Shown in pieces: positions 4,151 to 30,955 of a stretch of 64,000 nt of DNA. The stretch is from Geosiphon pyriformis uo1. Taxonomy: Eukaryota; Fungi; Glomeromycota. A model generated the notes under the pieces. The model was not told the origin of the DNA. It saw only the letters and a list, made by a program, of their open reading frames with translations, and ran no database searches. The stretch is from the NCBI GenBank assembly GCA_016748015.1, contig JAAOMT010000529.1, positions 252,848 to 316,847 of the forward strand, read 5' to 3'. A program made the translations under genes and the position numbers. How positions within the stretch are numbered: position 1 is the first letter of the stretch; each line of letters begins with the position of its first letter.

Positions 4151-4202
4151 GCCAAAAAATAAGGACATAAGTTTATTGAAAGTGTTTAGCGAGTGGTACC
4201 TT

Positions 4203-7200
4203 TTACATGGCATCATATCCTCCACCACGTAAATTGCGTTTTTTCTTTCCCGCTGAATTACTAGTATTAGCAGTTCGCCGGATATTTATGGCAGCTGCAT
4301 TAGAACTTTGCCTTTTAAATGCTGCTTTCTGTAAAAATGTAAATAAGGCAAATTTAGTGAATCTGTCCCTAATTTTGAAATTCAAAAAATTCAATTACCT
4401 GTAAATGTAGCCTTATCAATTGGTAAGCTGCGTGGCAATGCTCAATAAGTAGAAATTCGGGGAAAAGTTCATCAACCAAGTCGTAGTTAATAGTGGACGG
4501 CCAACAGTTAAGTGAAGTTTCAGTAAGGTAGAGTGACAATGGTTCCTTGGGGCGAAGAGATTCAGCCGAAAGATATCGTAATATAAATCTTTTTAACGCA
4601 GTAGAAAATGCTTCAGCCGGCAATTTCTTCTTACTGTGTAGGTAATCTTTTCGAGTTTGCAGCTGTTGTGTTTCAAAATCTAAGATCTCGATTAGTCTAG
4701 ATTCAAGTTCATTTGGAAGTGGCTCCTTGTATTGGCTTTCGATACATTCGACCGCTACATCAGCCACTTGATCCTCTACTAATTCGTATAATGCCACAAT
4801 GTGTTTCAATTGAAGTCCAACTTGAAGCATCCGACTGATCCCGTCATTTTCAATGATCAATAATTGGATCCATTGGTGAACGTAGTCTGTAATTAGCATA
4901 TCACCGTCACCAATTGCAGTACGTTTGACGAAACATAAGAGAATTTCCAAGGAAGAAAGAAGTTCTGATCCGTTTTCCAATGCAAAAGAATCCTCAACCA
5001 TCAAATAACCACTGGTGTAAGAGCTTGAAGAAGAGATGGAGCTATTTCTGAGAACCAAAAGTTTCTCGTGTGGAATATTTTCTTGTGGCAAAAGAGCTTT
5101 GACCTCGTTTAATAAAGTCCAGGATCCATGAAATAATTCCATGTGAAATAGGAATTTATCAAGATAAATATTCTCTTCAATGGGTTCAATATAGACCTTG
5201 TCAAACATTAACAAACGTGCAAGTTCAATCTCAATCTTGTATAAATCATAATCAATTTCTTGTCCATGGCCAACTTCCAATTTCCGTTGGCTGAATTTAA
5301 GAATTTCATTATTCCATTCGTATCCGATAATATTAGAAGATCTTGTATCTTCAACCCGCATTGAACGAAGGAGATAAAGTTGTTGTTGGTTATTCACAGC
5401 CTGAACCTGAGTTAAAGAAGCGCTAGAACCAAGCTCTGAGGTGTTATCTTGTTCGAGGAATCTAAGAGAACGACAACCAGGTGAAATGTTGATTACTTCT
5501 TGCAAAAACTTATTTTGCAGGGTAACTAAAAAGTGCAAAATTGCACAAAGATATAATGAATTATCTTTAGCTTCTATTAATCCAAAAATAATAGGAAGAT
5601 CATCTTTAATTATAGGCCTTAAGGCTGGTAGCTCATGACATTGAAATCGGGTTACATGAGGGATTACAATGTTCCAGGCTTCCGCAAATTCCATAAACGT
5701 TGTGCTCAAATAATGGGACATTTCTTCAGATTCTGCAGCTTCTTTGTTGATAAAATCACGAAAAGACATTTCTTGAGCTTGCTTACGGCTTATACGAAGG
5801 GTAAGGCGTGTGGATAGAATCTTAACAAATTTCACAATGGGCTTTATATATTTAATTAGAGGCAACGTTTGTTCATGCTTGAAAAATACTGCCAAAAATG
5901 GGAATTTCGTCATATTTTGATAATCGGCCGAAAAATAAGCACGCAGATTTTCACGATTTGTGTCCCCAATTTGACGCCAAAGTCGTGGCAAATGATTTTG
6001 ACAATATTTTTCATCCATTTTGATTGTTTCGTCAATTTCTGTTTCAAAAACACCGTTGCCTTTTTTTGCAGCAGTAGCCGCTGTCTCCAATTTTGTCCGA
6101 AAATCAATTACAGTTGCATTGAGGTTTTTAACAAAAGGTCTAACATATCTTTCAGTAAAATCACGCTCCCATTCTTCACGCTCAGCTGCTGTGTTGACAG
6201 CGATAGGATTTGTCTCGTAGCCTTTAATCATTTCTGAAAGGATTGCATGGATCACTAACGCTAAATGCTCATCTTGACAATCAAAAATATTCTTTAAGAC
6301 ATCCCAATCTTTGGTAATATGATCGAGACAATAAGCAGCCGGGTCTGGTACATTTTGTAGAAAGGCGTCGACCGTTGGTGAAGGTGTGGATATTCCAATT
6401 ATAGCGTGAACAAATAAATGTAAAATTCGATAAGATGCTGGAGTCATGGAGCGGACAGATTGATAAATGTCTAAGCTCCCTGCCTCAATAATATAGCCAG
6501 GCTGATCTCTTTGGGGGCCTTGTGTAACTGGGGCAGTATCAATTTTAGTTTGCCCCTCAGCTGGTCGCCCATAACCCTTTGGCTCAAATGATTTTTTGCA
6601 TTCAGGGCATACGATATTAATCCCAAGCTGTACGACATTCCCACAATCGCCAATCATGTATCGATATCCACATACACATTGATAACTACGAAGGATTTAA
6701 TGGTTTTAATATTATATATGATATCAAATGTATAAAAAGAGTACTTGGGAATCAAAAAACATACCGAGTGTGACCATCTGCACGCCCAGCGTTTAGAGCG
6801 TTCATAATGATTGCTTCTATATCCGATGGGCATGTTAGAATAAAGGAATTTTGAGAAGCTTGTAATTGATGGAGGTATGAGCACAACGGCGAATAGTTGG
6901 GTGGTAAAGATGCGTGTATTGAAACGATGTGAATGATAACCGAAATCAAAAGCATCTTCGGATTGGTTGTCTGTTGATTGAAGCGAATAAATGGGTGTTG
7001 GTTTTCAAAAATTTTCTCAATTATTTGCCTATATTGAATAGGAATCTTCATTAATTTTATTTTGTTACGCAGAAATTCATATACTCGCAACTCTCCATGA
7101 TTAAATTCCTGAGTAGCAATTCGAGTAGAATGTAGGCGAGCTGTTATAAGCCCCACTAAAGCAATACGTGCACCGACATCATTTTTCAATAATTTATCAA

Positions 7201-10200
7201 GAAATTGATCAAGAGGCCCATCGTTCAATATATAATATAAATTATCAAAAGCACTTTCTGCTTCAGAATAAGGTTTCAAAGACCAATACGGATTTACTGG
7301 AAGTTTGATTCGATTCTTTTCGTTGTCCCATGGCAAATCTCCAAGCCATGGTAAAATTTTTTGCTGAACTTCACAAAACTTTTTGATATTTTCAATAGAA
7401 AATTGTCGTGATCGCAAATCCTTCAGAAAATGTACTTTCAAGGAGTGAACTAAGGCGTTTGGGAATCGCAACGAATTGTTGATGTCTTCAATCCAATTAT
7501 CCATTTCCATAAAATTAAAGCCCACAACTTGAGCTAGCGAATCTTGTAACGACTCAGCGGATTCCCAGAATTGATGAACAAACTCTTTCAAAAATACAAT
7601 TGAAGTTATAACTTGCAAAGGCTCTGAATTATTTAAAGCTTTTAAAGTTTCTATTGCTGGATTGAAGAAAGGTACCAAATCACAAAGTTGATTATTTGAA
7701 AAATATTGTTTTTGTATAATATCGCCGCATAATGCAGCCATTGGAGAATCTAAGGCATCTTTTGCTAGGCATTCGTTGATAAGATTTAATCTCGGCGAAA
7801 AGCGCAAATACTCTTGGGGTGATTCAATAAGACCAAAAAATAAATTCTGCTGTTGCTCTTCTTCAGCAAGGAAGATACGCAAGATAATAGATGCAGTAAG
7901 TGGGAATGGATTCCGAGAGAAAATTTTCTCATAGAGATGTTCGCGCAATGGTGACTCTAGTTCAATAATTTCCAAGAAGCGCGTTAGGAAAGACTGTCGT
8001 GCAGTCATAATAGATTCATTGGGCTCCAAATTATCCAAGATTTCCATAATACTATCAATTGTTTCTATTGAGAAGATTTGTTGATATTTGTTTTGTTGAG
8101 CAAAATGAATCATTCTACTTATCTCAATAAGAGGAATTGCTTTTGTATTAACTAAATCATTGCAAATTCGCAAAAGACAAAGCGACTGTACATTTGAAGA
8201 TTCCGAGAGCTTGGCACAAACTGGAAGTATGTTATTAACTTGACGTTGCCATTGCTCTATTTTCACCACTTCTTCAGTCTGATCAGCTCCTTTCTGAAGA
8301 GAAAAATCATGAATATATCCTAGCATCATTTCCGTTACTTCCCGAATCAGATATCTTTCAAAAGTATCATCGTTATCGTCATCATCGTAATTATAGTCGT
8401 CGTCGTTGTTGATTTCATCATCAGAATCCATTAAAATGCCTTTGCCCTTTGTATTGTGATTTTTAACATTAATCCCTTTCCAAGATTTATCAACTAACAC
8501 CATTTCCACGATCTTCGGACAAAGTTTTGCCAAATTGAGTTTCGCAATAATGACTCCGGAGTTATCCCACCAGTATGCGTGTAACTTAATTGGGTTGAAA
8601 CTCTCTTTAGGGAGGTCCTGTCTTATGATATAACTCAATAGCTTTCCATTGTTATTTCCACTAATTCCTGATGACAATACCATAATAAAATCTTCATAAT
8701 AAAGATCCATTGCATGTTCCAAAAGTGGTGAGCGAAGAGCAGGCAAAGCAGTCAAAATATTGGTGGTAAAACGATCTTGAAGTTCTTCAATAATATGATT
8801 TAGAAGCTGTCCATTATCATCAATATTTTCATCGTCCTCAAAGAGTCTTTCCGATTCTTCTTGATATAGCTTTTTAAAATGATTTATCCGATTCATAAAA
8901 TGTAATGAAAATGGAAATCGGAGTGTATGTTGAGCATTTGGCATCGCATATCCATCAGGTTTTGGGTTGGGCAAATCTTCAATGTTTAGTATTTTCTTGT
9001 CCAAAAACATTTCGTTCCAAAAGAGATGAAGATTGTTTTCTTCACTGTCGCCGTCTGATATTGAGGTGTTAAAGAACGTTTCTAGAGCTGACAGTCTTTC
9101 GAGAACGCATAGGATTTTTGCAATAGGTTGCCGAATATATACCCGAATATAAGATTGAAGGGCGGCTGAGAAGGATGAGAACAAATATAACGATTTTTTG
9201 TCAGATGCTACTTGTAATTGCCAGTCATCGGAGCGGTGCTCTAATAACCATTCTTCTGTTCGCTTTTGTAAAATTGGCAGTAATTTGGAATTCGGAATTT
9301 TCTGTAGCAAGGTTCTAAAATAAAATTATGATAAGAATGGAAAATAAAGAAATCTGATTTCGAATTTAAAGCTTTCGGAAATTTTATTGATCAACTTACT
9401 TCACACGAACAATTTGCTTTGGCGAGGAGGGATACTTATTACAGAGTAGGCACCATAAAAGTTCTTTTTCTATGATTTCCTTAAATGGATATGATGAATT
9501 GAGGATATCATAAAGGTTATACTCCAGCAAGGTCGACAAGGGTTTGTCCGTAGGTGTCAGTGTCTCAATAGTAACCTGATTCCAACCACACATAAAATTA
9601 AAAAATCCCGAATTGTCCTCGTTTCCACGATGAATATGAAGAATTATGCATGCATGTTTTGATGGCACTTGATTTTCCTCTTGCTGGTCTAATCTCATTA
9701 AATATTCTCCACGGAATTGCTCGATAAGGAATTTCGCCAATTTTATACATCCTGAATTTACAGTAGATAGGTCACATTGTAGAATTAACAATTCATCTTT
9801 AGATTCTAACCAAAATCTTTTTATTCGATTTTGCAGTTTTGCTTCGGTTTTGAAGGTTGACAGCTTGTCAATTTGACATGATATAAATCCTTCCAAGATT
9901 AATTTTATATCTGTGTTGATATTTGAGAAAGTATTAATGATAACCTGATGACTTTCTGGAATGGTATCGGTGCGAGTGCTTTCGAAGAACGTCTTAAAGT
10001 AGGCCAAGACATCATCGTGGTATCGATTACCAAAATAGAATTCTTTCCAAAAAACTATTTCATTTCGATTTGTGCTTGCTAAAGCAGATTTCTCGGAGCG
10101 TATAATACCATCCGAAGAAGCAATCATAATGAGAGATTCTTTACACTAAAATTTTGGGAGTAGCAAAAGAATTCATTTAGAAATTTTGGTTATGAAGCGA

Positions 10201-13200
10201 AACGAAAATAAGAAGCAAACAAGTAAAACTGATTTTAATCTGACCTTGGTGATTATTGAGTCTTCATCCATCGTTGGGTTTTTTTTACAATGATCAATGA
10301 CTAAGCTTTGGACAGTTTCTACAGGATTAAATCCTATAAACATATCCTTTTGGGAAAAAGGATTGTTGGGATGTTTGGCTTCCAATTCCACTAGGGTTGA
10401 TATTTGATGTGCCCAATCCAAAAGATAATTTACAAATTTCTTTTGATATTCCTCGAGCGTATCATTGATGCTTACTCTTTGCTTTTCAAACCGGTTTAGG
10501 AGAGGAGGATCTGCATATTTTAAGTTTTTCTCGTCCATAATTAAAATGCACCGGAAATTTTCATGAACAAAGCACATTGGATTAGAGTAGGCGCCTAGAG
10601 CAACTCGTGTGTAGTGTTTCAGATTTTCTTGACTACCAACTAAAATAATTTTTAGACAAAAAAGTAGATTAGAGCAACAGGATTAAAATTTGAACCATGC
10701 AACTCGGAAAAAATAGAAAAATAGCAACTATTTCAAATCTATAAGCACCTGTTATATAGTTTTGGTTCCACAAGTCGTAAAGGCTTCCTGAGATGAGGGA
10801 GAAAGTATTTAAACAAAAAGAACCAATAAAACGCAAAGAGACTTCAAATTTTGAATATTTAACCATAAATTATTTCCAAGTCAGTTAAAATTAGGGGACG
10901 GCCGGCTTCAACGCACATCTAATGAATGTTTGGATAGTGTTCAGAAACGATGATTTTTAAAGCACTCAAACTTCAAAGTCCACTTCAAATTGTAATGAGT
11001 ATTTACCATTATCCGACTTAGAACAGCGTATGAATAATCTTCTTGATCATCTGAAAATTGGGAGCCACAAATTACCTAAAGAGTGATGTAATAAAGCTTA
11101 ATATTTCAGATATGCAAGAAAATTTTTTATTGTAGATATTCACCACTGGGTCTAAGTCTCTTTGACGCAACTGATATGTCAGTATATCGACAATTGAGTC
11201 ACTCTTGCCAATCACCATTAAGTGTCGGGCCTCTTTATCATCAAGGTTTGTGCTAATTAATTCCTCTACCGGAATCGAACTGTATTCATATGGTTTTCCT
11301 GGAAATTTTTATATAAAATAAATTTTTTAATCTTCAAAATATTACAAGATGAAATTCGATGTTGGATTTACCATTATTAAGGCTTGTGAAAACTTGTCCA
11401 AAGTATTGCTCACATACGTCTTTAGTTTGTTCAGTTCCTCCGAAATTTCGCGCTAATGCCACTTGCAAGGAGTCCGCTAGAAAGATTCTATGATAAGATA
11501 CACATAATTTCTAGATTACCTAGGAGTATTTAATAAATTTTTAATTACCTGATAAGTCAGCTCCGCTCAAACTCTTGACTAAAGCATAATAATCTCGTAA
11601 ACCTAAAAAACAGAATAAATAAACATTCACAAAATACATCTAGTTAAATGAACATTTAATTTTAGCGTACCATGAAAATTTGAAAATTTTTGATTCTTCT
11701 CATATTCTAGATATGCATCAGCTAGCAGACCGTATTTTCTTTTATAGTAATCACTGAATCGATAAACATAACCCTCTTTTTTTTCTAACAGGCGAGTACT
11801 TGTTTCTATTAAGTCTTCACGATCGAAGTTAGGCCGTTGAACAAGAAGAGCTCTACTTGATTTGCTATTGTCCAGACGCCAATTGCTGATACCGATCACA
11901 GAAATCTTAGGACCATCGTTCGGATAGCTCGGTTCGAGAAGTGAGTGTAAAACTTTTAGGGGATTGAATGGGCTAGTTTCGGCTAAACCAACTGCAAACC
12001 CAGAAGTTAAAAGAAAGAACAGTTAGCTGAACACAATAATTGTTGGTATTATTGGTATTATGGGTTATGATGAGTCTTTTGTTCCCACCTTCGTCAAGAA
12101 GAACAACAGCATTTAATGGAAATTCCTCAGAACTGGTTTTCTGATAATTATGCGCTTTTTCAAAAACTTTGAGTATACCATCAGAAGTTGATGAGGAAGA
12201 ACCTTGATGTGGGATAACATAAATCTAAATTGGAAATCGTGTTAATCACCAAATATAAAATACTGAAATACTTTTCAATCATTATATAAAGTTTAATCAC
12301 TTGTGGCAATTTTTGAAAATAACCATCATCAGAATCCGTTCCACGAAGATTCTGACTTATGATGCGTATTGCTAATGATTTGGAACTTGAAAAAGGATCG
12401 AAAAAAAAATTTGAAATTTTTAGAGTTTCATAGATAATTATAATGTTAGCCAAATTTTTTACCTTCCTGGAGCCCCAATTATAAAAACTGGAATACGAGT
12501 TAATATACAAACAACCATTACAAGTATATTTTCGAGCAGGGCAGAGTTCGCGGCAATTGATGGCCCTGTGTTCATACGGTCAAAATAATCTTTTTGTTCT
12601 TCTTTGTTTATATCTAAAAATCCTTCTGGGTCCATATTAATTCCGTTCATTGCAAAAATAGCACACATTCTTTGTCGATATATTAGTCGGTCCTTTTTAT
12701 CGTACATTCTGGCCTATTATGTTATATATTTTTACAACAAAATTGAGAAACTAGTTAGTGTGATTCCATCACCAAGTGTAATACATATATAGACATGCCT
12801 GATAACACAATCCTAATGCCAAACAAATGGAACGTGTCAAAATAGACCACCGATCATTCGGGTACTTGTAGTATCGGAAAATATTTTTAGAAATTTTGGG
12901 TCCCGGACGATTTCGAAAACTCTTTTGAAAAAAGTCAACGAGTTTTATAGCACGTTTACAATCACGAAGGCTGACACTGTTTGGCTGTAAAACCAATATA
13001 AGGTCATTAATGTCAAGATTTGATGATAGAGTGTGAAACAATTAGAAATTGTGGCTTATCCTAACCTCCTCCTTTTCTCGAATAAATTGTTGCGAGGCAA
13101 ATAATAAATCAGCAAACCCATTCTTAAGAGCCTCTGGTCCGAGGAACTTGTCTACCATAATCTGTATATATTTTTTCTCATCTTTTGGCTGAAGAACACC

Positions 13201-16200
13201 ATAATCCCAAACGTAATCCAAAATTTGATCGGGTAGTGGATGCACCTGATAAACCAATCTACTTCGCTCTTCATAACGTTTTTGTACTACCAGGCCAGCG
13301 CTAGTTTGACCTTTAGTTCGTAATCGATAACTTGAAGAAATTTTTTATAGTTAAATTTCAAACAAAATTTCTCGGATGGAGCCAGATTTATTTTAATCAT
13401 ACTCACGGATTAGCCGCAGCGAAAAGGCGAATGTTGTGGTGGATGAGTCTTCCGTTGAGCATTCTGTGTGATATGAGGTCGGCGAGCAATCCAATATGAT
13501 TGCAAGTATTTATTTCATCAAAGAATAACCAGGTCTCGCCTAATTGCGCTGCGTTGGTAGCTTCTTCCATAAATTTAAGGATATCGTGATCACGTATTCC
13601 AGCATGTAAATTCAAGGCCTTAAATTGTACTTCAATCACCAATGATAAAAAATTAAGAAGACTGGTCTGTAATAAAAATTAATCATTCTTAGCAAAAATT
13701 CTTGAGCTTGCAATTGAACATAAAGGTTTGAAATAATTATTACTTTGCCACACCCAGCTTCTCCACAAACAATTACAGGAATATTAGCACGAGCTCGCAA
13801 TAATATTAACGCCATTTTTAATATATTGTCACCAGATAATGCGTACGAGGGTAGGTCGAGTTTATGAACTGATTTTCGGGCGAGTGATTCTAATTTCAGG
13901 AGCAATACCTCAGCAGGCATTTCGTGGTAATCATCTAATGCCCACTCTTTACTGTTGGCACATATCCGGAGATCAGCTTGTTGACCTTTTAACAAGCTTT
14001 GAACGTTAACGGGAACTTGGGCCTTATCTCGATAGAATGCAGCGATCGAATCTGGTGCCTGGGACAAAAATACGACCAATAAATGATTTGATTCTTCCCA
14101 AGCTACAAAAATTGAAATAAAGATTAATTACAAGAAATGACTTTTGAGTCGCATCTAAATTATGAAAAAAATTGATAAATTACGTAAGATGGCGCCCAAA
14201 CGTGCATTGTCCGCTTCAAAAGTATTTTCCAATTGTGCGAATTTAGAAGATATTCCTCGCGTGGCAAAATCTTTTCCCGAGGCAATAAATTGTTCGACCA
14301 ATATAGAGCGAATATCACGTGCTTTGACCATGAGCGAAAGATTTTCCACGCGGAAATATGAGCTTGCTGACATACGGATCAATTGATCAGCAAATACGTT
14401 AACAAATATTTGAACGAAACGATGAGATAATATATTTTCAGTGTTCTCTTCAAAGAAATATTGGCGTATCAAAGTTTGACAACGATCGGTGGAAACAGGA
14501 GGACCAGGGTGGAAAGAAATATTTGTATTGTCGAGAATTCTTCTATCATAAGCATCCAAATAACGAGCTACAACTTGGATGGGACTGGTGAGCTCTTGTG
14601 ATACAATCATATTTTCGATATTCCAGGTTATATGATGTGATAAAAGATAGCCAGTAAATGGAAGAGAATTAAGTAGATATTGCTCGACAGTAGATGCAAT
14701 CTCTATATAGACATGGGTATCAGGAAGTTCTGCGATATCAACTTCATTAGAAATCATGCCCAACGTCAAAAGCTCAAATAAGAACATGTTGACATCACCA
14801 GAATGATCCACAGAGAGTATGTTGAGATGCAAGCTTTCGAATTTCCGAAGATTACAGTTTTTTAATTGGCACGTCAATCTTTCAAACTGAACACAATCAC
14901 TGATGAGAAAACTTCGTGGTATCAAACCGTTTTTCATACTAGCTTGTTGAATCCATTCAGTTTTTCCTTGACCAGATAAAGCTGAAGAAACACATGTAAC
15001 ATTGGGACAAATTTCTGCATAAATTTTTGTCATGGAAGAGGCATTGAGGCCGTTTGTTATATGGACATTATCAGGAAATTGGTCGATTATGTGGTGATGC
15101 ACTCCTGGCTCATGACAACAAACTAACGCCAAATTATAAGATGTCTCTATTTCACGAAGTGTCCGTATATCTTTGACCAGATTGTATTGTATGTCGTAAT
15201 CAAGCACCTCTAAGTTTGCGATGCAGAACAATTGTTCTTCTAAACCGTTGATAAATATAGCAATTATGAAAAGTCAGGATCAAACGAAGAGGAATAGTTT
15301 GGAAATTTCTTTGACAAGACCAATAAAATCAAGCTTACTATATCCATTTCTAGAAGCAAAAAAACACCTTTTGATGAAGAGAGAAAGTTCCTCGGCTGTG
15401 GTTGAAGATCTACATATGAGAATTTCCCATGGTTCAGGATATGCTCCATGATTTGCGAAAATTGACATTATGGTATTAGCTAAACGTGTTTTATCACAAG
15501 CCGCAATAAATAATTGGCCAGGTTGAACCACATCAGTCATTATCAGCTCAATTTGCGCAAAACCTTTTCGCGTTCTTTTTGGTAACCTTTCAAATATATC
15601 AAAGAGCTGTGATCCAATTTCACTCAATATTCTATCAAAAGATTCTGATCGGTAATCAAAAGCCTGAAGGTCCATTGGAGATGGTAGTTGGGCTTGTTTG
15701 TGTACATATCTCAAAAGTATTTCACAATTGGCTTGATTTTGAGATTTATCAGTTGCATTTCCCATAAAATAATCATAGAATGTCAAAATATGACGCGCTG
15801 TGAAAAAATTCAAATAATAATGATCTTCTTGTGATTTGTTGACTATGTCCTTCCTTTGTGTGTAAGATAATTAGTTCGTGATGTATTTAAGAAAATAAAA
15901 GCTAAACACAAAAATAATTACCACTTTTCCAAGTCAATTTTGAGAATTTCAAATAAGTCGATCATTTCTTCAAGATTCATTGCACTCTCGTTAAAGTCAC
16001 GATATGCAAAATGTCCTAATTCCATCAACGTTGATGCGAGAGCTACGATCTGTTGACTCATATCAACATGACGCACAAATGTCGTCATATAATCATTCTC
16101 ATCTTCCAAGTCAGAGCCATTTTCTTTTTCAACTAACATGGGATTAATTGATTTCGCTGACTTGGAAATTAGTAGAGCACGCCCACGCAAATCTTGCAAT

Positions 16201-19200
16201 TCACTAAGACTATATTCGGTCACTTTCACTTTGGAGCGGTATGCCAATGATACGGTACATTTATATTCGTTTGGAGGACGTTTAAAGGTATAAGTTCCAA
16301 TTGTGACTGCATTTTTGATGCGCTCTTTGGTCACCTCGCCACGGTTTGAAATATTTTTGTACATATTTTGTAATGCGAGATTATGTGCATTACATAGCGC
16401 AATTTTTGTTGAAAGAGATGAATTTTTCACAAAGACTGAATTCAATTCCCTCACAAAATCATCAAATTTTGAAGTTCCTAAATAATATTATAAAATTGCA
16501 AATGAATTAAGTAGACCAGAAAGTTCAATAGAAAGGCTAAAACACTGAAATTACTTGATACCTGCAAAACCCATCACTGGCAGAAGGAACTGTTTGACTT
16601 CAATTAAAGACGATACTGTGTCTTCTTGGATTAATCTCTCGTCCGAATGGTCATCAACCCCATTAATCAGATTTTTAATATCATGTTCAGCGACAGATCG
16701 TAAAAAGCCAAGGAATTCACCGGAAATTGAAAGTTCCTTAATCAACAACCAACAATCCGGATTTACATCACGAAAACAAGATTTGAGTTTTCGCCAAATC
16801 TCTGATAATTGTCCTAGTAACATTTCCTCGCTGTTGAGATCATTTGAGAGCGAGAGCAGCCAGCTTTTTGAAGTAACAGTTACCTCAAAAATTTCGGCTG
16901 TTATTTGTCTAATTTATTCAAAGGTCGTAAGACATAAAAATTATGAAAAATAATAATTAATACTTGTTTAATAAGAAACTTACAATTGGTCAAGCTGCTC
17001 AATCCAAGTTGGAATCATGGAGAGATAGCTAACTACATCTTCCAAGTCCTTTGTTACACGCCACGTCATACCAGATGTCATTAATTGCAGTTCTGTTTTA
17101 ACGTCATTAACATTAACATTTCTCCAGAGTAAGAGGGCCTTAGAGCATTTGAGCATTCTCCAATTGGCATATTGACTACGTAATTTATTATATTGTTCAA
17201 ATGTGGTTGGCAAAACCTCTTGTGCCAGTTTCAAGACGGATAACTTTTCGGGCTCTTGATTCAAGCAATCCTCGAAAACATTTGCAAAGGTTTTTGATTT
17301 GACATAAATATTTGAACGTTTTGCGATCTCCAAAATAGGTTGATGAAACATCCAATAATCTAAAACAAGTTTAAATTAATTAATTTAGGCTTTCCATTTT
17401 TGTAGGAATTAATTTTACTAACCAGGCAATAGAGCCTCATTCAAGGTGGTTTTGTCAAATAATTTCATACGCTGACGAACATCCTCAATATACTCTTGAG
17501 CATCAATTAATTTAGGACCGCTACAAAAGCGAGTATAAAATTCGTTCAAATACTTAACCTTTTGTTCATATATTTTGCACTCATCACGAAGTATTTGAAG
17601 CCTTTTGTTAGTAATATTAAAAGCAATGGTATGAGATGATTGACGTCCAGCTTCAAAATAACGAATCAGCTGATCATTCGAATATTTTATCAAAGTTTGG
17701 AGCATGCTTATTTGTATAGTGTTTTTTTCGATCATCTCTGCTAACTGAATGACAGCATGACGAACACTTTCTACATGACAATGAGCGCCTAACCGATTCA
17801 CCGAGCCTGAAGCCATTAAGATGGTAGCCCAAAAGTCGGAGCTCGAGAGCAAATTGACATGAAAGACATTTAAAATGATGCCGGTGCCCGATTTCGGAGA
17901 ATGAGCTTGCAAACGAGTCATGATATAAAATAAAATTTCCTCGCATAATCTAAAAAATAGTAGAGGATTCACACAATTTACAACATATTTTATCGAGTAT
18001 CAATCATTGCTTATTACTAAAAATAGCACTTACTTATTTGGAACGATCAGCTGGCTTTCATTATTGCTGCAGCCACATATATTCCTTATATATACCATGA
18101 GTTTTTTATCAGTATATTTAACAAATTCTAGACGCTTTTTCAATATTTCTTCAAAGCATTTAGAAACCTCAGCTCTCAATTTTTGACCAATCAACGACGT
18201 TGATTTGAACAAGAGCTCATCAGAGAAAATCTCTACTCGTTCAAGAGCAATTTGGTACAATTCGTTGAAAAGTGTTTTGCTTTTGACGATGACCGGGTAA
18301 ATGTTCGAGAGTTGCAAAAATATATGAAATACAATGTTGAAGTTTTCTTTTTTACGATCATTGCGACTGCAAATGTGCCCAATTATTTGTCGATACCATT
18401 GAAGACAAATGGGGTGAGCTTTTTTGGAGATTTTTTGGAGATTTTTTGAGGATTCGAAAAAGGAACTCAATAATTGGGGAAAGATTTCCAACAGATCTGG
18501 GACCTCGGATGTAGAAACAATGTCCAAAGATTGCATAGAATCCTCTGGAGTCCAATAAAGCCTTCTTTCATCAAGGAGCACTAAGATACACTGAATATTC
18601 TGTGAAGTCCAATTGAATTTCTGAGAACTCCGGTTTAAAAATTCCATAACTTTAGAACGAAATTTTGACGCTAAAAACTTTTGGACGTCTTCTGGGATTT
18701 CTTCAAGACGATTAAGTAAAATTATAGCATCATCAGCGGTGGTTAGATGCAAAAAATGATTACCCACGTGAACGTGAATTTGGCCAAAAAGAAAAGAGTC
18801 TGTTCTGGCTTTGTCATTAAGGATATCTTTCCATAAAAAGGTCATTAAATCGATGCTAGTCGTTAAAGAAATCAAGGACTGATGTTGAAGTAAAATATAA
18901 ATAGATGTGTTAAATGGTTATCATTTTACAGGTTTGCAAAAATATAAAAATCGAACCTTAAAGATCTTTGAATAGAGAGATGGCGATGAAATCTTGTCGA
19001 TGGCAGGTTTGACGATTTGAGATAATGAAGTTTTGAGACGTCTCAGGGTTTCCCCTTCATATTTCCAATTTTGAACAAGTTTCAAAAATTTATATTCGGG
19101 ATCGATTTCTGGAGCTGCAATAAATGCTTTCATCCATTCAAACTCGGTGGATATTGACGAGTTTTGTTGAACTAAGGCTGAAATTACTGGCAAGAGCAAT

Positions 19201-21107
19201 TTTAAAGTATTTGAAGGAAGATTTCCAGACTGAATGACATCAAGGCCTTCCAGCAAAGGTACAGAAGGAAATGAGTCGTGGAGGCGATAAGTAGTCAAAC
19301 TCTTTTTGCGTTCCTGTTCCATCACATAACCTAAAAGAACATACAAGAATATTTTCTGGTGGTCGTGTATCTCATCTTCTAGCAAACAGTCTTTAATGAA
19401 ATTGATATTTGTCACAGCTGTAATCTGGGATGGGTACGCTTTTCGTAAGGCTTGATATTCCATAATTTTGTCCTTTGTATTTTTCCCATCCAATGATTGG
19501 TAGATATCACAAACAAAATGCCATTCATTGAAATTTTTTATCCAAAGATTTGCATTATTACTCCATATGTCGTAATGAATTTCCTCCATTTTTAACTCCC
19601 GATTCTGTTGTGCTGTATAACCTTCAAAGAGGGTGTCATTTGGCCACCTTTTAAAAGGAATTCTTTCCGAAATAGTTGGTGAAGGATTCCAAATTCCATA
19701 CTTGTAATGGATTCTTAGTGTTGAGGTGAATGAAGACATTGGAATCTTCACTGGATCTGAACTCCAATAACTTGCGTTACTGCTCCATTTATAAAGTTTA
19801 ACTTTGGGTATTTTCCATTCACCGAGTTCCGGGATGCTGCCGAGAACAACAGGTTTCCAGTGACTGGGCATATTCGTTGGGAGATGAACCCGAAATGAAA
19901 TCAGCTTGAACTCTTCCAAACTTGGTGATTCTTTTTTCTCGCGAATATTGTCCATAGAATCCTCATTTCGCTGATTTTCCCATATATTTTGATGAGCATC
20001 TTGCTTTTTATTCGTAGTAGAAGGCGAATCAAAATTTTGATTCGCCGCAGTGACTTGTTTGTAATTTGGATTTTTCGTTTTTGCATTATTTTCACTGTGA
20101 GAAAAGGCCGAATTTGTTGCTTCGTCGAGAGTTTTACCAAGATCGGAACCTTGTGTTATTGGAGGCAAAGTATTAGCACTTGAAGTTTGTGAAGAGGGTG
20201 AAGATCCATTGTCGGCAATTTCAGGAGATTCTTCGGATTTTGTTTCCTTCTTTTTCTTTTTCGTTTCTGCATTTTTTTCACTGTGAGAAAAGGCCAAATT
20301 TGTTGCTTCACTGAAAGTTTTACTAAAATCGGAAACTTGTGTTATTGGAGGCAAAGTATTAGCACTTGAAGTTTGTGAAAAGGGTGAAGATCCGTTGTCG
20401 GCAATTTCAGGAGATTCTTCGGATTTTGTTTCCTTCTTTTTCTTTTTCGTTTCTGCATTTTTTTCACTGTGAGAAAAGGCCAAATTTGTTGCTTCACTGA
20501 AAGTTTTACTAAAATCGGAAACTTGTGTTATTGGAGGCAAAGTATTAGTACTTGAAGTTTGTGAAGAGGGTGAAGATCCGTTGTCGGCAATTTCAGGAGA
20601 TTCTTCGGATTTTGTTTTCTTTTTCTTTTTCTTTTCTGCATTATTTTCACTGTGAGAAAAGGCCAAATTTGTTGCTTCGTCGAAAGTTTTACCAAGATCG
20701 GAACCTTGTGTTATTGGAGGCAAAGTATTACCACTTGAGGTTTGTGCAGAGGGTGAAGATCCATTGTCGGCAATTTCAGGAGATTCTTCGGATTTTGGTT
20801 TCTTTTTTTTTCCCTCACTACTGTTGGGTAATGAACCTTCATCTTGGTCGGATCTGCCTAGATGTGCAAATAATTATTCAGAGAAGATAGAATTTCAGTA
20901 TTAACTCATACTTTGATATTTATTTATCCATTGGCCAGGAATTTATGTTATAATCTCGTTTAAAGTACCAATAAAATCAGAGTTGACTTGATTAACGGTG
21001 CTTCTCAAAGTTTCAGAGTCTTCTGGGCTGCGGCTTCCACTTTTATCTAGTTGGATAGTAAAGTTGGTAGGGAGCTTTTGATCTTTGGGTTCACTATCAC
21101 TACTCAT
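4203..21107 (-). CDS. RNF213: RNF213/mysterin-like giant AAA+ ATPase and RZ-finger E3 ubiquitin ligase, 28 exons, ~4,901 aa, apparently intact
   Basis: Hand-built exons: 21107-20969, 20857-18957, 18878-18034, 17949-17423, 17359-16984, 16908-16562, 16477-15922, 15853-15339, 15239-14184, 14102-13744, 13666-13407, 13330-13066, 12984-12799, 12713-12463, 12385-12301, 12224-12089, 11991-11671, 11602-11549, 11476-11372, 11298-11144, 11075-11007, 10918-10864, 10787-10749, 10639-10245, 10145-9400, 9314-6765, 6685-4399, 4328-4203. Total 14,706 nt with all 27 intron phases consistent. RNF213-type motifs in order: SALSGQGKT; IPVIVCGEAGCGKTS with WLFFDEIN; LVYQVHPLP; SVSLRD; IPVFIIGAPGSSKSL with VVLLDEVGLAE; GISNWRLD; FHGLRDYYALVK; RNFGG; LYDLWNQNY; PPLLNRFEK; RZ-like CVCGYRYMIGDCG...CPEC. 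The symbol denotes family homology, not proven orthology. Confidence 0.93.
20075..20812 (-). repeat. Coding tandem repeat, four units of 183-186 bp (61-62 aa), in exon 2 of the RNF213-like gene
   Basis: Anchor ctgtgagaaaaggcc recurs at 20095, 20281, 20467 and 20650 (spacings 186, 186, 183). Unit approx. KKKKKETKSEESPEIADNGSSPSSQTSSANTLPPITQxSDxxKTFxEATNLAFSHSE. Confidence 0.97.
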
Positions 21108-21530
21108 AATTAGTTTTTCAATAATTTAAGGACTTTGGACTTTTACTTCAGGCTCACCCTTTGCGTTTTTTGGTGAGCAAGGAAACGCAGTAATATCCAC
21201 CCACAATTTTGAACAGGACCCATTATTAAAAAGATCAAACGCCACCTGATAATCAATTTAATCAATCAACCATGCATTTCTTTGTTGGCAAACAAAATCC
21301 CATTGTTAAAAGAAAAACTTTAAATCCTGTTTTCTGGTAATATTTGTCCAAGGGAGTTTTGGCTCTCTTTGTTGGAGGGAAGGAACTTACCAAAATAAGA
21401 TTAATTGATGCATGCACGAATTTTTGTGATCGACATAACTGAAAAGTTTAGCATAGCTATTGATTAAAAGCATTTGCAAAAAGTCTTGCCAAAAAAATTT
21501 CGTACTTTTTTGATTTGAATTTTTTGAATC
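21108..21530. promoter_or_regulatory. 423-bp intergenic region between two divergent start codons, candidate bidirectional promoter
   Basis: Predicted ATG of the RNF213-like gene at 21107 (minus) and of the RING-Ubl-TerD gene at 21531 (plus). No specific element identified. Confidence 0.65.
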
Positions 21531-21927
21531 ATGATATGCTCAGAGTGCCAAATCGACAAGCTATCAAATGAATACCCAACATCTATAACTATAAATTGTG
21601 AACATATTTCATCATTATGTTTACGGGTAAAACATAAATAGTTGTTCATATTAAAAAATCTTTGATTATTTGAAATAATTTCGACTTTGTTTAGTGCCTT
21701 CTTTCCGAACTTGCAGCCCAAAAAAGTGAACCAAATGAAGACCGTGAATTACCTTTCTTCTCCGCGTCTTCCTCCTCGTCCTCCTCTTCCTCCTCTTCCT
21801 CTCATTCAACTCCTGAACCCACAGAATACTCTAAATTTCATTGCCCTGAATGTGAGGTCCCAATGACCATCGAGGAAGTTCAATACCTTTTTTCTGTATG
21901 GGAAAACGCTCTTTTCAAGCTTAATAT

Positions 21928-21967
<40 letters not shown>

Positions 21968-23055
21968 AATAATGATGATAATGATGATAAACCAGATATT
22001 AATTCAAATGAAAATGGGGAAGGAACTATTGCTGGAGGACAATTTTATGTGGTTATGTTAAACGGTCATAAGATTGCATTAGATGTAGACAGAGTTCCTT
22101 CAATAATTGCCTTAAGGGGACAAATTCAAAATCGGCTTGGAATCCCAACATCAAAACAAAAGTTACTTTTCAATCGGAAAGAATTACTTGTAAGCTTTTA
22201 TATTTGCCAGAATTTTTATTGATTTTTTTTCAAGTTTAATAATACTATTAAAAAAATTAAAGGATACACAACCTGATCGACAAGCGAGTACACTTGCTCA
22301 TTATGGAATTCGTCATAATAGCAATGTACAACTTATTATAGTTTTGTATTCAATAACCAATGCTGAAACTATAAAAACATTAGTTTTTGAATTGAGTTGG
22401 GGATTTCCCATCAAGGGAGTAGACTATCTAGACGGAACATGTATGGTCTATTGTGGTGATATTCTAATACGCAAGGTAAATAAAAGTTATCGATTTATGT
22501 GAATCTCAGTTAATTATTTACTGCAGTCATTGTCTATTTGAAGTATGACTACATGTCTGTATATTATCCAAGCTTCCCGCATATGAGACATTCTGGTGAC
22601 GTTATGGACACAGCAAACAAAAGAGGTTAGAATAAAATTATGCTTAAATTCATTTTCTAAAAAATTTTTCATCGACATTATCTCGAAAAATATTAATTTT
22701 GTAATTCGATTGTGTTGGAAAAAAAGGTAGTCATCGCATCACAGCAAATCTCGATAGGCTTCCAGAAACGGTTACTCAACTTTACTTTATCCTGAGCGCA
22801 TTTAATGCTGGGACTATCGGTGAATATCCTAAACCAAATTTTGAGATGTATGATGAAGCGAAACCAAACAAGCCATTGTGCACTTATACCATTCAGAATG
22901 CTGCTGAATCACAAGCGGTGATCATGTGCTGCGTGTCACGAGCAGGAAGGGATGGTATATGGCAAGTGATAGAAGTGGGTAAATTGACGCCTGGTAATGC
23001 TAACGATTATGATCCGATAGAAATTGCTATAAGTGAATTTGGCTTGTTAGCCTAA
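21531..23055 (+). CDS. RING finger - acidic linker - ubiquitin-like - TerD-like domain protein, 5 exons, 404 aa
   Basis: Exons 21531-21626, 21695-22189, 22263-22475, 22544-22625, 22727-23055 (1,215 nt, phases consistent). RING: MICSECQIDKLSNEYPTSITINCEHISSLCLR|C-x48-CPEC. Ubl: FYVVMLNGHKIAL...LGIPTSKQKLLFNRKELL|...TLAHYGIRHNSNVQLII. TerD-like: FELSWG...DYLDGTC...HSGD...ITANLDRLPETVTQLYFILS...LCTYTI...QAVIMCCVSR...WQVIEVG. Confidence 0.85.
21929..21967 (+). repeat. (GAT)13 coding microsatellite, poly-Asp linker
   Basis: Perfect GAT run inside exon 2, followed by NNDDNDD. Confidence 0.95.
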
Positions 23056-23828
23056 GTCATGACCTGTGAATTTTACGATCATTCGAATGGATTAAATCGA
23101 TCATCAATATACAAATACTATAAAAAGAATTAGAATATTCCTCAGGCGCCATCAAAAATTTAACCACATTCATTATATTTAAATCACTCAAGTTGTGTTT
23201 GATAGATCTCCATTAGTTGTATAAAAGCAAAACTTGGAGAACCAGCTATAAGAAATTCATTAATTAGGTTTAAATCCAACATTTTAAACAGACTTATTAA
23301 AGTTAAAATAAAATAAAAAATTGGCTAACATTCTGGATAATAAGCAATGTAAAATATGTTGATTAAAAAAAATTTTTGAAAGTTTGTTTTTTATTAAGTT
23401 TCAAATTTCTTTGATTAATATTTTATTTTTATTTATTTTGCTATCTCAATTTATTTTTTATAAATATAAGTTTTTAAATTAAAAAATTTAAAAGCTTAAC
23501 AAATTTCTTAATAATTTAAAATGATTTAATTTTTATTTTTATTTATAGCATATTTTTTTAATTTTAATTTATTGTTTTTTATTAATATTATTATCATTTA
23601 AGTATAATTATTTTATCGAATTTAAATAACAATAATTATTATTATTATTATTTAATAAATTAATTTTATTATAATCAATTAATAATTGTGTTTTAAATAA
23701 TTTTATTTATTATTAAAATAATATTTTAATAAAACTTTCAAAACTAATAATGTTGCCAAAACGCCGAGTGATAAAGAAGTGCTTTAGTTGTGGTTTTTCC
23801 TGATTAAAAAATTCGAAATTGTACGAGC

Positions 23829-23878: not shown

Positions 23879-24073
23879 CTCTTTGACTGGAAGGCGTTAA
23901 AATATTTACAAGTCGAAAGTATATAGAAACTTCTATTCCTGAAGTTTTCAGTAGAATCTTGGATAAAAGTATTAGGATACCTAATTTAACTGGTAGTCTC
24001 ACTTATTATAATTTTTAAACTTTAAAGGCTTTCACTAAAACACCTATCCAGATTTTTTCACTGCTCGATAACC

Positions 24074-25687
24074 ATGATTAAACGAAAAGGAACCCAAGTT
24101 GGTGGTGGTGACAATGAAACTTCCAAAAAAGCGAAACTCACACCGACAAAGAGTACTCAAACCTTCTTAACTAGTTGGGTGAAAACTCCAACTTCTGAAA
24201 CGGATAACGCGTCTTCAGAAAACAAAACCTCTGATATTAGTCCCGTCAAAAGCGTTGCATTAAGTTTTGAGGAGGTGACCAAAAGTTTAGCAGCTGATAA
24301 AAAAGGATTGTTAAGTTTAGAGGTTGAGACTATGAACCCTGAGTGGTTACGAGTGCTGAGCGGTGAATTGATTAAGCCTTATTTTCTTAAGGTAACATTT
24401 GAAGCTGCTAGAAAAAAGTGACACGTGGGGGTTTTCTAGTCGAGCGGTCCGAAATCTAATATGCTTTTTATAATTTCTAGTTAAAGGAATATTTGCAAGC
24501 TGAAAAACAAAATAAGAAAGTAATATTTCCTCCCGGTAAATACAGATTCATCCAAAAGAGGATTAGATTTCTTACCAAAAATATGGTTCCCTAACAAAAA
24601 TTAATCATTATTATAGAAAAGGACATTTACAGTTGGTCGCGATATACCCCGTTGTCAGGCGTCAAAGTTGTCGTTGTCGGTCAAGGTATAAACTTAGCTC
24701 GTTTTACATTGCCCATCATCTATGTGATCTGCCTTCAAATTTCCTAATCATATTTTCAGACCCATATCATGATAATGGACAAGCCCATGGTAAGAGTGGA
24801 TTCTTCAAAATTGTTTTAAGAGAACTTAATTTAATTGCATCAGTTTGAATTCCAAAAAAGGTTTATGCTTCAGTGTCCAGAATGGCATAAGAGTACCACC
24901 ATCTCTCATAAATATCTATAAAGCATTGCAGCATGATATACCTACTTTTCAAGTACCTAATCATGGGTAAGTTTCAAATTTTTGCTCTAAAAAACTTAAC
25001 TCACTAACAGAACATTTCTAGACACCTTGAAAATTGGGCAAAGGAAGGGGTTTTATTGTTGAACGCATCGTTGACAGTTCAAGCTCATCAAGCGGCTAGT
25101 CATAGTGGAAAAGGCTGGGAGCAATTTACCGGTAATTTCCTTTAGTCACACATCTGGCGTTTTTGATCCTTATACTCAACCTATAATTTTTAAAATCTTT
25201 AATCTGATTTCTTCTAGACGCCATAATCCAATATCTCAACCAAAAGAAGAGTGGCCTTGTTTTTATGTTATGGGGATCACACGCCCAGAAGAAGGGGAAG
25301 AATATAAATAAGGTCAGTGAAATCCAATTTAAGTAGTTGAATTTAGTCAATTGGAGCAAAACTAAATATTCCCGCTTTGGATCCAAGACGCGGCATTGTG
25401 TACTTCAAGCTGTACATCCATCACCCTTATCATTCCGCCACGGATTTTTAGAATGTCGTCATTGGTCCAAAGCCAATGAATACCTGAAAAGCCAAGGCAA
25501 GGAACCTATTAATTGGAATTGCCTTGTAGAACGTGATCCGATCCAAGATCTGGACATCCCCAGCACAACGTCGAATGAAGATGAAACAGTTTCTATTGAG
25601 GATGTTTCTCGTATCACCACTACCCTTGAGGAAAAGCCTATTGCCACTCAAGACCAAGTGTTGGATGATCCGGTTGTTTTGCCTTGA
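24074..25687 (+). CDS. UNG1: Uracil-DNA glycosylase, family 1, 8 exons, 360 aa
   Basis: Exons 24074-24391, 24481-24535, 24617-24685, 24760-24789, 24861-24966, 25022-25131, 25218-25312, 25388-25687 (1,083 nt). Motifs [52 protein letters not shown]. Confidence 0.97.
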
Positions 25688-26185
25688 ATTCATTAACGTT
25701 TTTATAATGTTTAACGTCCTCGGGATGTTTAGAAATGTAAGAATGGTAAAATTAATAGCTTTTTAATAATATAAATTCTCCAAATTAAGAAATTAGTTTG
25801 TAGATAATTCTGTTATTTTTTTCAAGGAGTGCTTATTAACCAAACATACTAATCAACAACACAATATCAACCCAAAAATTGTAATACCTATGAAATGACT
25901 TGAGATAATCTGTTATTTAAATTGACCTAGGAAAATGAGGGAACATAAGATGCATGATACGATGGAGGCATTTATGTCGAAGAAGGTTTTTTAACGTGGG
26001 TGATTCACCGAGATAATTTGATTATTTTTTCGGCTTTAACCCTTACTGATCGATTAGGATTAGAAGGATGTTTTTTACAAGGCTTACTCATTTTTATATA
26101 GTCAGTGATGCGTGTACTTTGTCTCTCCTGCTTGGAGAAATCAAATGATGCTTAGATATCAAGAGCAAACCTATAAACCAATTAA

Positions 26186-28723: not shown

Positions 28724-30955
28724 TTTTTTTTTTATTAAAGTTTAACAAGTAAGGCCCAACTACTATCTAATACAATATGACTACATAGAGTCTTAAATTA
28801 AATGTGGTTTATGTGTTTTTTAGCTACTCGAACCAGTTCAGATTATACTACGTTGAAGCTCTTAAAGAAAACTTACCCAAAGCCAATATTTTTTGAACAA
28901 CAGAAAACAAGATAACACTACAAGGAACCAATCCAACCAGCCACTTAACTGTCTTCAAGCTATTAGATTTAACATCAACAAGTTTATGTTCCCAAGGAAC
29001 ATTAGATTAGAGAACACTTCATCATCCAGACCAACTGGGTGCTCTGAATCACCAGACATGTCTATATCTTCTATACAACACACTTTTTTCAAAGAAACCA
29101 CTTCTCTCTCCAACTTACTAACAACTTTACTAAAAAAACCCATATGCACCATAATCTCATTGATTTTAAAACCAAGTTTGCTGCTTAAAACCAGATCACC
29201 ATTAATAAATTGTTTGAACAATTTGACCAAAGAACCAACCAGCTTAACAATAGACTTAACCAAAGCAGAAAGCTTAGTTAAATCAGATTCCAAAGAAGAT
29301 AATTGAGACAGCACTGTGAGATTACCAACAACAACTGGAAGAGAGACAAAAGGTAACAGAGGTGGAAATCTAGATGAGCTCAAAGAAGCAGAAGCCTTGG
29401 CATAAGACTGAGAGCCAACAAAGCATGATATAAACACCATGGAAAGCTTGAGAGGAGAAGATGGAAAAACCTTACAGTCTGCAACCAAATGATCTATTTC
29501 TTGATACTTGAAACAATGCCGACAACCAGAAGTTTCTCACCAAATATGGCATTTTCTCAATATACCAGTCTTGACAATAACGGAGTCCAAATCAGCTTGG
29601 GAACCAAATGTAACCAGAGCAAACTGGGACTGACAACTGGACTCAGGAGAATGAAGAATAAAACATGTCCGACTACCAACTTAAAAAATCATATTACTGA
29701 TTTCGAAAGCTGTGCATCCAGAAGAAAAATTGACCAACTTGGCCTTAAACTTATTACAAGACAAAATGATCTCATTTTGATTCACTAAAGGAAGATCTTA
29801 ACACTATCTTTGCTCACCAAAACTGACCAATGATTTAAAGCAGACACAACAGAGTTTAACTTTTTAAAATAAACCACTACATACTGCCAAACACCAATAG
29901 GCTTCAGCACAACATGAATGATACTATTAAACACATTGAAAGCTGTCTTAATGTCAACAGCAGACACACCCAAGGACACATTACACAGTGCAACAGCAGC
30001 AGAAGAAGAACCAGACTCAGAAATTACCAAAGACTTGGCAATTTTGAAGGTGGCCAAATATACAGAGCTTGTAAGCTCAACTAAAAATGCAGCTTCTAAA
30101 GACATTTGAAAAGCAAACTCCATACAAAACAGATTTACATTGTCTTTTGATACTGACTTTGCATCCAAAAGACCATATACTGACTGAAAAACAGTCTTAA
30201 CATGAGCCAACTTGATCTTGAAAGTAGCACCAGACATCAGAGTAGAGGTCACCCACTCAACAAATCTTTGATGACTAGTAATAGTTTCCCAAACACTACC
30301 AAAAGTAGCACCAGAAACTAGAGAAGGAGATAATTCAGTTTTTATTTGATCAGCCCAGTTCTCAAAAACAGGTGACCCAACAGAAGAAGATTGTTTTGCT
30401 TTTAAAACCAGCAATGATCTGCACATTTGGCAATACAACCAGTAGTTGATCTTGGCTCATCTTGGACAATGTGCTGGATAATACTACAGAGATCTCATCT
30501 AAGATCTCATTGGGAACCACAAAAGAATTTAGTATAACAATAGCAGAGGCAAGTGACTGCCCCCACTTTTCTGAACTTTTGGTCTTTTTGACCATTTTCT
30601 TTAAAGAGGTAGTGTTAGAAACACCAGATGTTGAATCTATAGAGAAGAAAACCAGCTTATTTACTGGTCTATTATTAAAAACTTTTGGGCTCTTAGTCAG
30701 AGTGGAGACAACACTGAGACTAACCCAAGTGTGTCTCTTTAAGAGAACTTTGACTGGTAAAAAACCAGCCAAAAATGAGAAAGTTGCTTCAGTGGCTACC
30801 AAAGACAGCTTTTCATGATTATTGAGTAAAGGAAAGGCTTCTAAAACATTCTGTCTAGTTGCTTCTACAACAGAGAAAGCTCCTCTAGTTAAAATTTTGT
30901 AAGATATCTCAGGACAGATATTAGGTGTAGCTTTTTTACTCTTTGCTTTGGTCAT
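28724..30955 (-). mobile_element. ORF1-only non-LTR retroelement (RRM-like, CCHC knuckle, coiled coil, poly-A tail), decayed
   Basis: ATG at 30955; RRM-like block (AAVALCNVSLGV...VWQYVVVYF); degenerate knuckle CFKYQEIDHLVADC at ~29473-29515; heptad region LSSLESDLTKLSALVKSIVK; A10 tail at 28724-28733. No endonuclease or RT between ORF1 and tail. Confidence 0.7.

Follow-up and report, generated by a model that had tools for sequence, protein, structure and literature searches.

The closest described relatives of the protein discussed here are the bacterial TerD and TerZ proteins (PF02342; PDB 3ibz, 2kxt, 2qz7, 2qng). In excerpts of the papers cited, bacterial TerD is reported to bind calcium and a Dictyostelium homologue to bind cAMP (PMC8779313, PMC8123226), and TerD is described as the likely ligand sensor of the anti-phage Ter system (PMC7824862). 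The Ca1 site of Klebsiella-type TerD comprises residues 40, 41, 42, 78, 79 and 89, according to the same excerpt (PMC8779313). The fold also occurs in eukaryotes, as in Dictyostelium CapA/B (CABP1), listed as a bacterial transfer in an excerpt of PMC3188802, and in radial-spoke chain 7jtk_A. Here we analyze a stretch of 64,000 nucleotides (the window) from the fungus Geosiphon pyriformis uo1 (GCA_016748015.1, contig JAAOMT010000529.1, positions 252,848 to 316,847 of the forward strand), in which a five-exon gene on the plus strand encodes a 404-aa protein that joins a RING finger, a ubiquitin-like domain (Ubl) and a TerD domain. The gene is expressed and spliced and belongs to an ancient eukaryotic family of RING-Ubl-TerD proteins.

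Among bacterial and phage sequences, the best matches are TerZ-like and share 23-28% identity. Compared to the bacterial proteins, D40, N79, G82/G84, D88 and E89 are lost or changed across the family, whereas D251 and D270 are new; the gene is spliced, fused to RING and Ubl modules and comes without a ter operon. CapA/B and 7jtk_A share the eukaryotic TerD fold, but the descriptions consulted report no RING or Ubl for them. For the RING the nearest comparison is with RING1 of the RING-between-RING (RBR) ubiquitin ligases, namely fungal Dorfin-like RBRs, with parkin as the case that combines Ubl and RING1. Both are alike in predicted structure (template-modelling (TM) score 0.69), in the missing linchpin and in having a Ubl in the chain. 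The window protein differs from RBR ligases in that it lacks IBR and RING2/Rcat, has the order RING-Ubl instead of Ubl-RING and carries TerD in place of the catalytic half. With RING-HC ligases (E3s) and their partners (RNF4, BRCA1, BMI1/PCGF-RING1B, MAT1) it has the C3HC4 ligand set in common, whereas the family shows two extra residues between the His and the fifth ligand and a mostly polar face towards the ubiquitin-conjugating enzyme (E2). PCGF and RING1B also carry a RING and a ubiquitin-fold domain; the family Ubl resembles ubiquitin itself far more than that RAWUL domain does (25-31% identity to ubiquitin and close Ubls).

Out of five splice models tried, four contain internal stops and were rejected. 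The remaining model stays open and has the following layout (all on the plus strand):

21531..21626, plus strand: exon 1, 96 nt, with the ATG and the first six zinc ligands to C30; based on sequence and a spliced joint (68 bases, GT..AG)
21558-21578, plus strand: conserved K-L-S-x-E-[FY]-P loop in exon 1
21695..22189, plus strand: exon 2, with the remainder of the RING (to 21853), poly-Ser, helices, poly-Asp and the start of the Ubl (from 22040)
21767-21802 (aa 57-68), plus strand: poly-Ser in exon 2
21929-21967 (aa 111-123), plus strand: poly-Asp in exon 2
22263..22475, plus strand: exon 3, with the end of the Ubl (to 22349; I-I-V-L-Y, no di-Gly) and the start of the TerD fold (from 22368; W243, D251-Y-L-D254)
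22544..22625, plus strand: exon 4, with D270 and the H284-S-G-D287 loop
22727..23055, plus strand: exon 5, with G296-S-H298, the remaining TerD-fold domain and the stop
23056..23115, plus strand: 3' untranslated region, ending at the poly(A) addition site

At the four introns, contigs from one sequencing run (X1) leave out exactly 68, 73, 68 and 101 bases, in each case with GT..AG ends, and one of these contigs carries a loose end of 20 A behind 23115. Since they skip intron 1, exon 1 is spliced to exon 2 as had been predicted originally. The transcript evidence comes from this one run of one study, possibly from the source sample and listed as 'RNA? (probably DNA)'; given the intron-free joints and the poly(A) end, we take the contigs to be derived from RNA. 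Because the poly-Asp repeat in exon 2 interrupts the contigs, none of them spans the whole coding sequence. Introns 1, 2 and 4 are found at identical codons in two genomic homologs (L004 and L006), and in an intron-free metagenome contig (L001) all parts of the architecture lie in a single frame (45% identity). Codon positions 1, 2 and 3 are identical to L001 for 63%, 74% and 40% over 357 codons, as expected for a constrained coding gene. The window contains one RING-Ubl-TerD copy. A scan of the window for sigma-70 promoters gave chance levels and is irrelevant to a eukaryote.

A search with exon 5 yielded 13 longer glomeromycete proteins, 11 of which were used to build a family profile. Searching with this profile gave 145 proteins, of which 120 were listed; at E up to 1e-30 it also gave 169 representatives, and the 150 listed include some polyubiquitins. 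In total 268 rows match the profile, 129 of them end to end. Keeping only those below 95% identity leaves 118, with the window protein among them; as about 40% of these are glomeromycete, the family counts lean towards this group. Organism names were looked up for 20 representatives. Full-length members occur among fungi in Glomeromycotina and Jimgerdemannia (Endogonales), among animals in Branchiostoma (amphioxus), Lingula, the cnidarians Montipora, Porites, Oculina, Dendronephthya and Actinia and the molluscs Mytilus and Pinctada, and among protists in Planoprotostelium, Arcella and Mastigella (amoebozoans), Naegleria, Choanoeca (choanoflagellate), Pterocystis (centrohelid) and Picozoa. The ESM Atlas adds two clusters (81 and 149 members) that are eukaryotic throughout, with molluscs predominating. 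RING-Ubl-TerD proteins thus form a well-conserved, uncharacterised and ancient eukaryotic family and are no one-off: the architecture that was originally called unusual is confirmed, but it is conserved across several eukaryotic supergroups. Databases already give the members automatic labels (ubiquitin-like or TerD domain protein), and NCBIfam gives no family at cut-off for the four relatives submitted. We found no published description of the family, although a 2012 survey of the Ter system, outside our coverage, may already draw the architecture. Some members are longer: P0136 from the animal clade has an extra N-terminal vWA domain, and P0227 (Picozoa) and P0155 have long N-terminal extensions that match no assigned domain.

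In a tree built from 112 rows, after removal of 17 that were partial or nearly duplicate, the fungi fall into one clade (support 97) and the animal-containing rows into another (99). Ambispora has the sister sequence of the window protein (99), within an orthologue group that tracks the glomeromycete phylogeny, which points to a probable host of Archaeosporales type. According to the approximately unbiased (AU) test, fungi and animals as one clade are compatible with the data (p-AU 0.85), which does not by itself demonstrate that grouping (37 of the 129 rows); deep branching of the protists is unsettled. Given the low identity to bacterial TerD and the single clades formed by the fungal and by the animal copies, the sequences indicate that the TerD domain was acquired long ago. 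Bacterial ancestry of the domain is plausible, and the call of a bacterial-type domain is right as to the fold, though not as to closeness or range, which spans several eukaryotic supergroups. A recent transfer from bacteria was rejected in view of that same identity, the four introns (three of them common to L004 and L006) and the range across supergroups. A GTDB scan with one narrow pattern returned no confirmed relative, IMG/VR no confirmed viral copy among 378 pattern matches, and BFVD TerD or ubiquitin matches only separately.

With regard to the RING finger, C3, C6, C23, H25, C30, C33, C82 and C85 match the originally proposed zinc-ligand spacing exactly. All eight ligands are present in 113/118 rows, which makes the finger a RING-HC (C3HC4) type. 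A profile of 19 N-termini matches RNF4, BMI1/RING2, BRCA1, COP1 and MAT1, and single RINGs match from E 1e-4; Pfam RING families respond weakly to single sequences (5-6 of the 104 members per family). The best-kept surface of the finger is K-L-S-x-E-F-P, with K10 in 112/118, E14 in 112/118 and F15 in 114/118 rows. Canonical RING E3s are characterized by hydrophobic E2-contact residues and a linchpin Arg. Here Pro83 is found in 89/118 rows, a hydrophobic residue at loop-1 position 5 in 25 and at position 84 in 21, and the linchpin Arg in just 4 (Arg or Lys in 25), so the hydrophobic E2-binding loop residues and the linchpin of a canonical RING E3 are mostly absent. A first structure model (11 sequences; predicted local distance difference test score 59) left the RING unresolved; a second model resolved it. 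The nearest outside ESM Atlas models for residues 1-70 are fungal RBR-type proteins (rows below the tool's naming bar), and the H-x4-C spacing found in 105 of the 114 matched rows also points to RBR RING1. No IBR or RING2 follows: neither is among the Pfam families listed (25 of 38; 104 members), and the model holds only RING, helices, Ubl and TerD. The protein therefore has the RING1-like part of an RBR ligase alone, without the IBR and the RING2 with its catalytic Cys. Searching structures with the whole model filled the lists with ubiquitin rows, and the RING fold was not among the matches listed.

Between the RING and the Ubl, the poly-Ser and poly-Asp tracts of the original prediction are indeed present, but as local inserts: runs of five or more Ser occur in 3/129 rows and runs of six or more acidic residues in 2/129. 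They carry no weight.

The predicted Ubl and TerD domains were likewise confirmed, by structure comparison and by Pfam, which detects each of them in 100 of the 104 family members (on single exons of the window gene the scores stay below the curated cut-offs: ubiquitin E 8.5e-5 for exon 2, TerD E 5.8e-5 for exon 5). A beta-sandwich fold together with the profile match places the latter domain in PF02342. The Ubl has a beta-grasp fold without a free C-terminal di-Gly, as in an integral (type II) Ubl, and in the predicted model a single uninterrupted strand leads from it into the TerD domain.

Neither calcium site of TerD is intact. At Ca1, D42 and D78 are kept (acidic in 111/118 and 101/118 rows), whereas D40 is acidic in 1/118, N79 is Asn or Asp in 3/118 and E89 is acidic in 1/118, the Glu89 position being occupied by His or Gln in 113/118. 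At Ca2, tested as residues 29, 82, 84 and 88, W29 is kept, G82 and G84 are gone and D88 is acidic in 3/118. Judged from the alignment, the calcium sites are remodelled family-wide, with two Asp ligands kept and the others lost or turned into His/Gln. The replacement of the acidic calcium loop that had been noted for the window protein is accordingly real and extends to the whole family (the lost loop positions are acidic in 3/118 and 1/118 rows), but its HSGD part is simply the H-x-G-D that TerD proteins conserve; the residues lost are the D-D-E further downstream and, in D-L-D, the first Asp. The same calcium-site-less subtype was seen in five proteins with tandem TerD domains and no RING pattern. 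Four of these are giants of 1,900-2,560 aa with Fn3 matches and an EF-hand in one (P0226 and P0241 from dinoflagellates, P0240 and P0242); the exception, P0171, has 649 aa and consists of tandem TerD only.

Upstream of the gene, the following features were found:

4204..21107, minus strand: giant RNF213/mysterin-like gene, about 17 kb, both ends predicted, with weak CBM20, AAA modules, E3 region, RZ finger and C-terminal domain
21108..21530, no strand: intergenic region, 423 bases between divergent ATGs (21107 minus, 21531 plus)

Pieces of the neighbour match RNF213 chains at E 3e-9 and 3e-5, and at E 2e-28 when a profile of the neighbour's own family is used; Pfam adds ZnF_RZ (E 2.2e-6) and CBM_20 (E 0.005), and the gene is collinear with Rhizophagus proteins of 5,400-5,600 aa. 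It resembles mammalian RNF213/mysterin (6tax, 7oik, 8s24) in its AAA modules, weak CBM20, C-terminal domain and RZ finger. Unlike the mammalian protein it has no RING pattern: C-x-H-x(2-4)-[CH]-x2-C is absent from all minus frames of 4001-21000. In its RZ finger the position of the catalytic Cys is preserved, but the zinc site reads C-x-C-G-Y instead of C-x3-H, with Tyr at the position of His4509 and no His at that of His4537 further downstream (compared to the passage in PMC11549300). The N-terminus of the neighbour shows about four imperfect Ser/Lys-rich repeats.

The X1 contigs cover 20968-21144, where coverage stops at the neighbour's predicted first donor, and 21502 onward, leaving 357 bases in between uncovered. 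Transcription of the two genes therefore starts within an interval of about 360 bases at most. A shared two-way promoter is likely, and the two genes may be regulated together. A similar layout was observed in L006, where an acidic low-complexity open reading frame (L006:2-449, minus strand) starts about 490 bp upstream of, and divergent from, a Paraglomus-like RING-Ubl-TerD gene.

As to function, our preferred though tentative reading is that the RING-Ubl-TerD protein helps the ubiquitin system to recognize its targets, as an adaptor or co-E3. A role in cell-autonomous defence is predicted, perhaps together with the neighbouring RNF213-like ligase. The TerD sandwich would bind a small ligand, a glycan or a protein surface through the conserved residues W243, D251, D254, D270, Y271, H284, D287, H298, S319, W/F321, N386 and Y390, which by strand topology are expected to cluster at the old Ca1 end and might hold at most one non-calcium metal. 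The Ubl, presumably not conjugatable but with an intact L8/I44/V70 patch, could then dock on ubiquitin receptors or on the E2 backside; alternatively it might fold back on the RING and gate it, as in parkin. Finally, the RING1-like finger would recruit a ubiquitin-charged E2 (E2~Ub) or a partner ligase. As such a finger is expected to activate poorly alone, transfer would need a partner with a catalytic cysteine. A bolder version, which we consider quite improbable, is a split RBR-like immune ligase: the RING1-type finger would bring E2~Ub in trans, the TerD pocket would detect microbial ligands on behalf of the RING-less giant under the same promoter, and the RZ cysteine of this RNF213-like protein would carry out the transfer. 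In that case the family would represent an ancient eukaryotic pattern-recognition adaptor, derived from a bacterial anti-phage sensor domain, kept in endobacteria-carrying fungi and marine invertebrates and lost in vertebrates.

Several observations weigh against the adaptor reading. Active RINGs without a linchpin Arg exist, BRCA1 being an example. The orthologue group of the window protein is conserved and follows the species tree, which fits a housekeeping role too. In 27 coral-type TerD domains the pocket-end loops are not more variable than those at the opposite end (0.76 against 0.74 bits, p 0.46; loops assigned from strand topology, not coordinates), so these sequences give no sign of receptor-style diversification of the pocket. 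None of the named RNF213-like matches (14 matches of one search and 10 clusters of another) adjoins a RING-Ubl-TerD gene by locus tag or accession, which is weak evidence, the search having covered proteins of up to 4,285 aa and full-length ligases being longer. Compared to RNF213-like N-termini, the divergent reading frame of L006 reaches E 0.63 at best, which is not significant (L006 is short). Moreover, an excerpt of PMC11549300 reports that mammalian RNF213 does not need its RING to coat bacteria and to ubiquitylate them.

A rival explanation is a stand-alone, ligand-gated RING E3. Here TerD would capture the ligand or substrate and the RING would carry out ubiquitin transfer directly, with the Ubl priming or gating the E2. 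The nearly invariant zinc ligands, the common Pro83 and the presence of the active E3s RNF4 and BRCA1 among the best sequence matches of solved structure all agree with it, and UHRF1 and the RING1B/PCGF proteins are known examples of a RING and a Ubl combined in one chain. However, an RBR RING1 by itself does not activate E2~Ub, and both the H-x4-C spacing and the Atlas matches indicate that type, with no IBR or RING2 behind it. Stand-alone activity is unproven because the finger is RING1-like and mostly without the E2-binding residues and linchpin Arg; the weak E2-face lowers the likelihood of E3 activity, and a lone E3 is possible but not the default. We therefore regard this explanation, and with it the ligand-sensing E3 of the original prediction, as doubtful. 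Still less probable is a housekeeping sensor for metal or stress homeostasis, in which D254, D287, H298, D251 and D270 bind Zn, Mn, Fe or a nucleotide and tune protein turnover while the neighbour is incidental. Two Asp ligands of Ca1 are kept and Glu89 has mostly become His or Gln, relatives of the domain bind calcium or cAMP, inheritance of the orthologue group is vertical and the coral-type pockets are not hypervariable. Yet Gln at position 298 in 28/118 rows and the variable position 297 would make a poor strict metal site, and the range is patchy with lineage expansions. We consider it improbable that the protein is a non-catalytic shuttle or scaffold, with TerD capturing a client, the Ubl contacting the proteasome or cofactors of p97 (like Rad23 or BAG6) and a purely structural RING (as in MAT1): the Ubl is internal and a continuous strand ties it to TerD, whereas shuttles carry a free Ubl at the N-terminus, and no UBA domain was detected among the Pfam families listed.

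The adaptor reading aside, the family couples a TerD pocket to the ubiquitin system, and its calcium ligands, swapped for His and Asp across supergroups, offer a direct test case for TerD binding beyond calcium. If the link to the RNF213-like neighbour is true, the protein would provide a small, tractable handle on how ubiquitin is aimed at microbes in bacteria-hosting fungi, corals and bivalves; if false, there is still a new RING-Ubl architecture that deserves description at the level of Pfam.

On the other side of the gene, positions of about 24060-25700 (plus strand) hold a multi-exon gene that we take, from its motifs, to resemble uracil-DNA glycosylase (Pfam on two exon pieces gave no match at E 0.01). 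Open reading frames at about 28900-30460 and onward presumably belong to a non-LTR retroelement region. From 30 kb to 64 kb the window shows strong switches in AT and GC skew.
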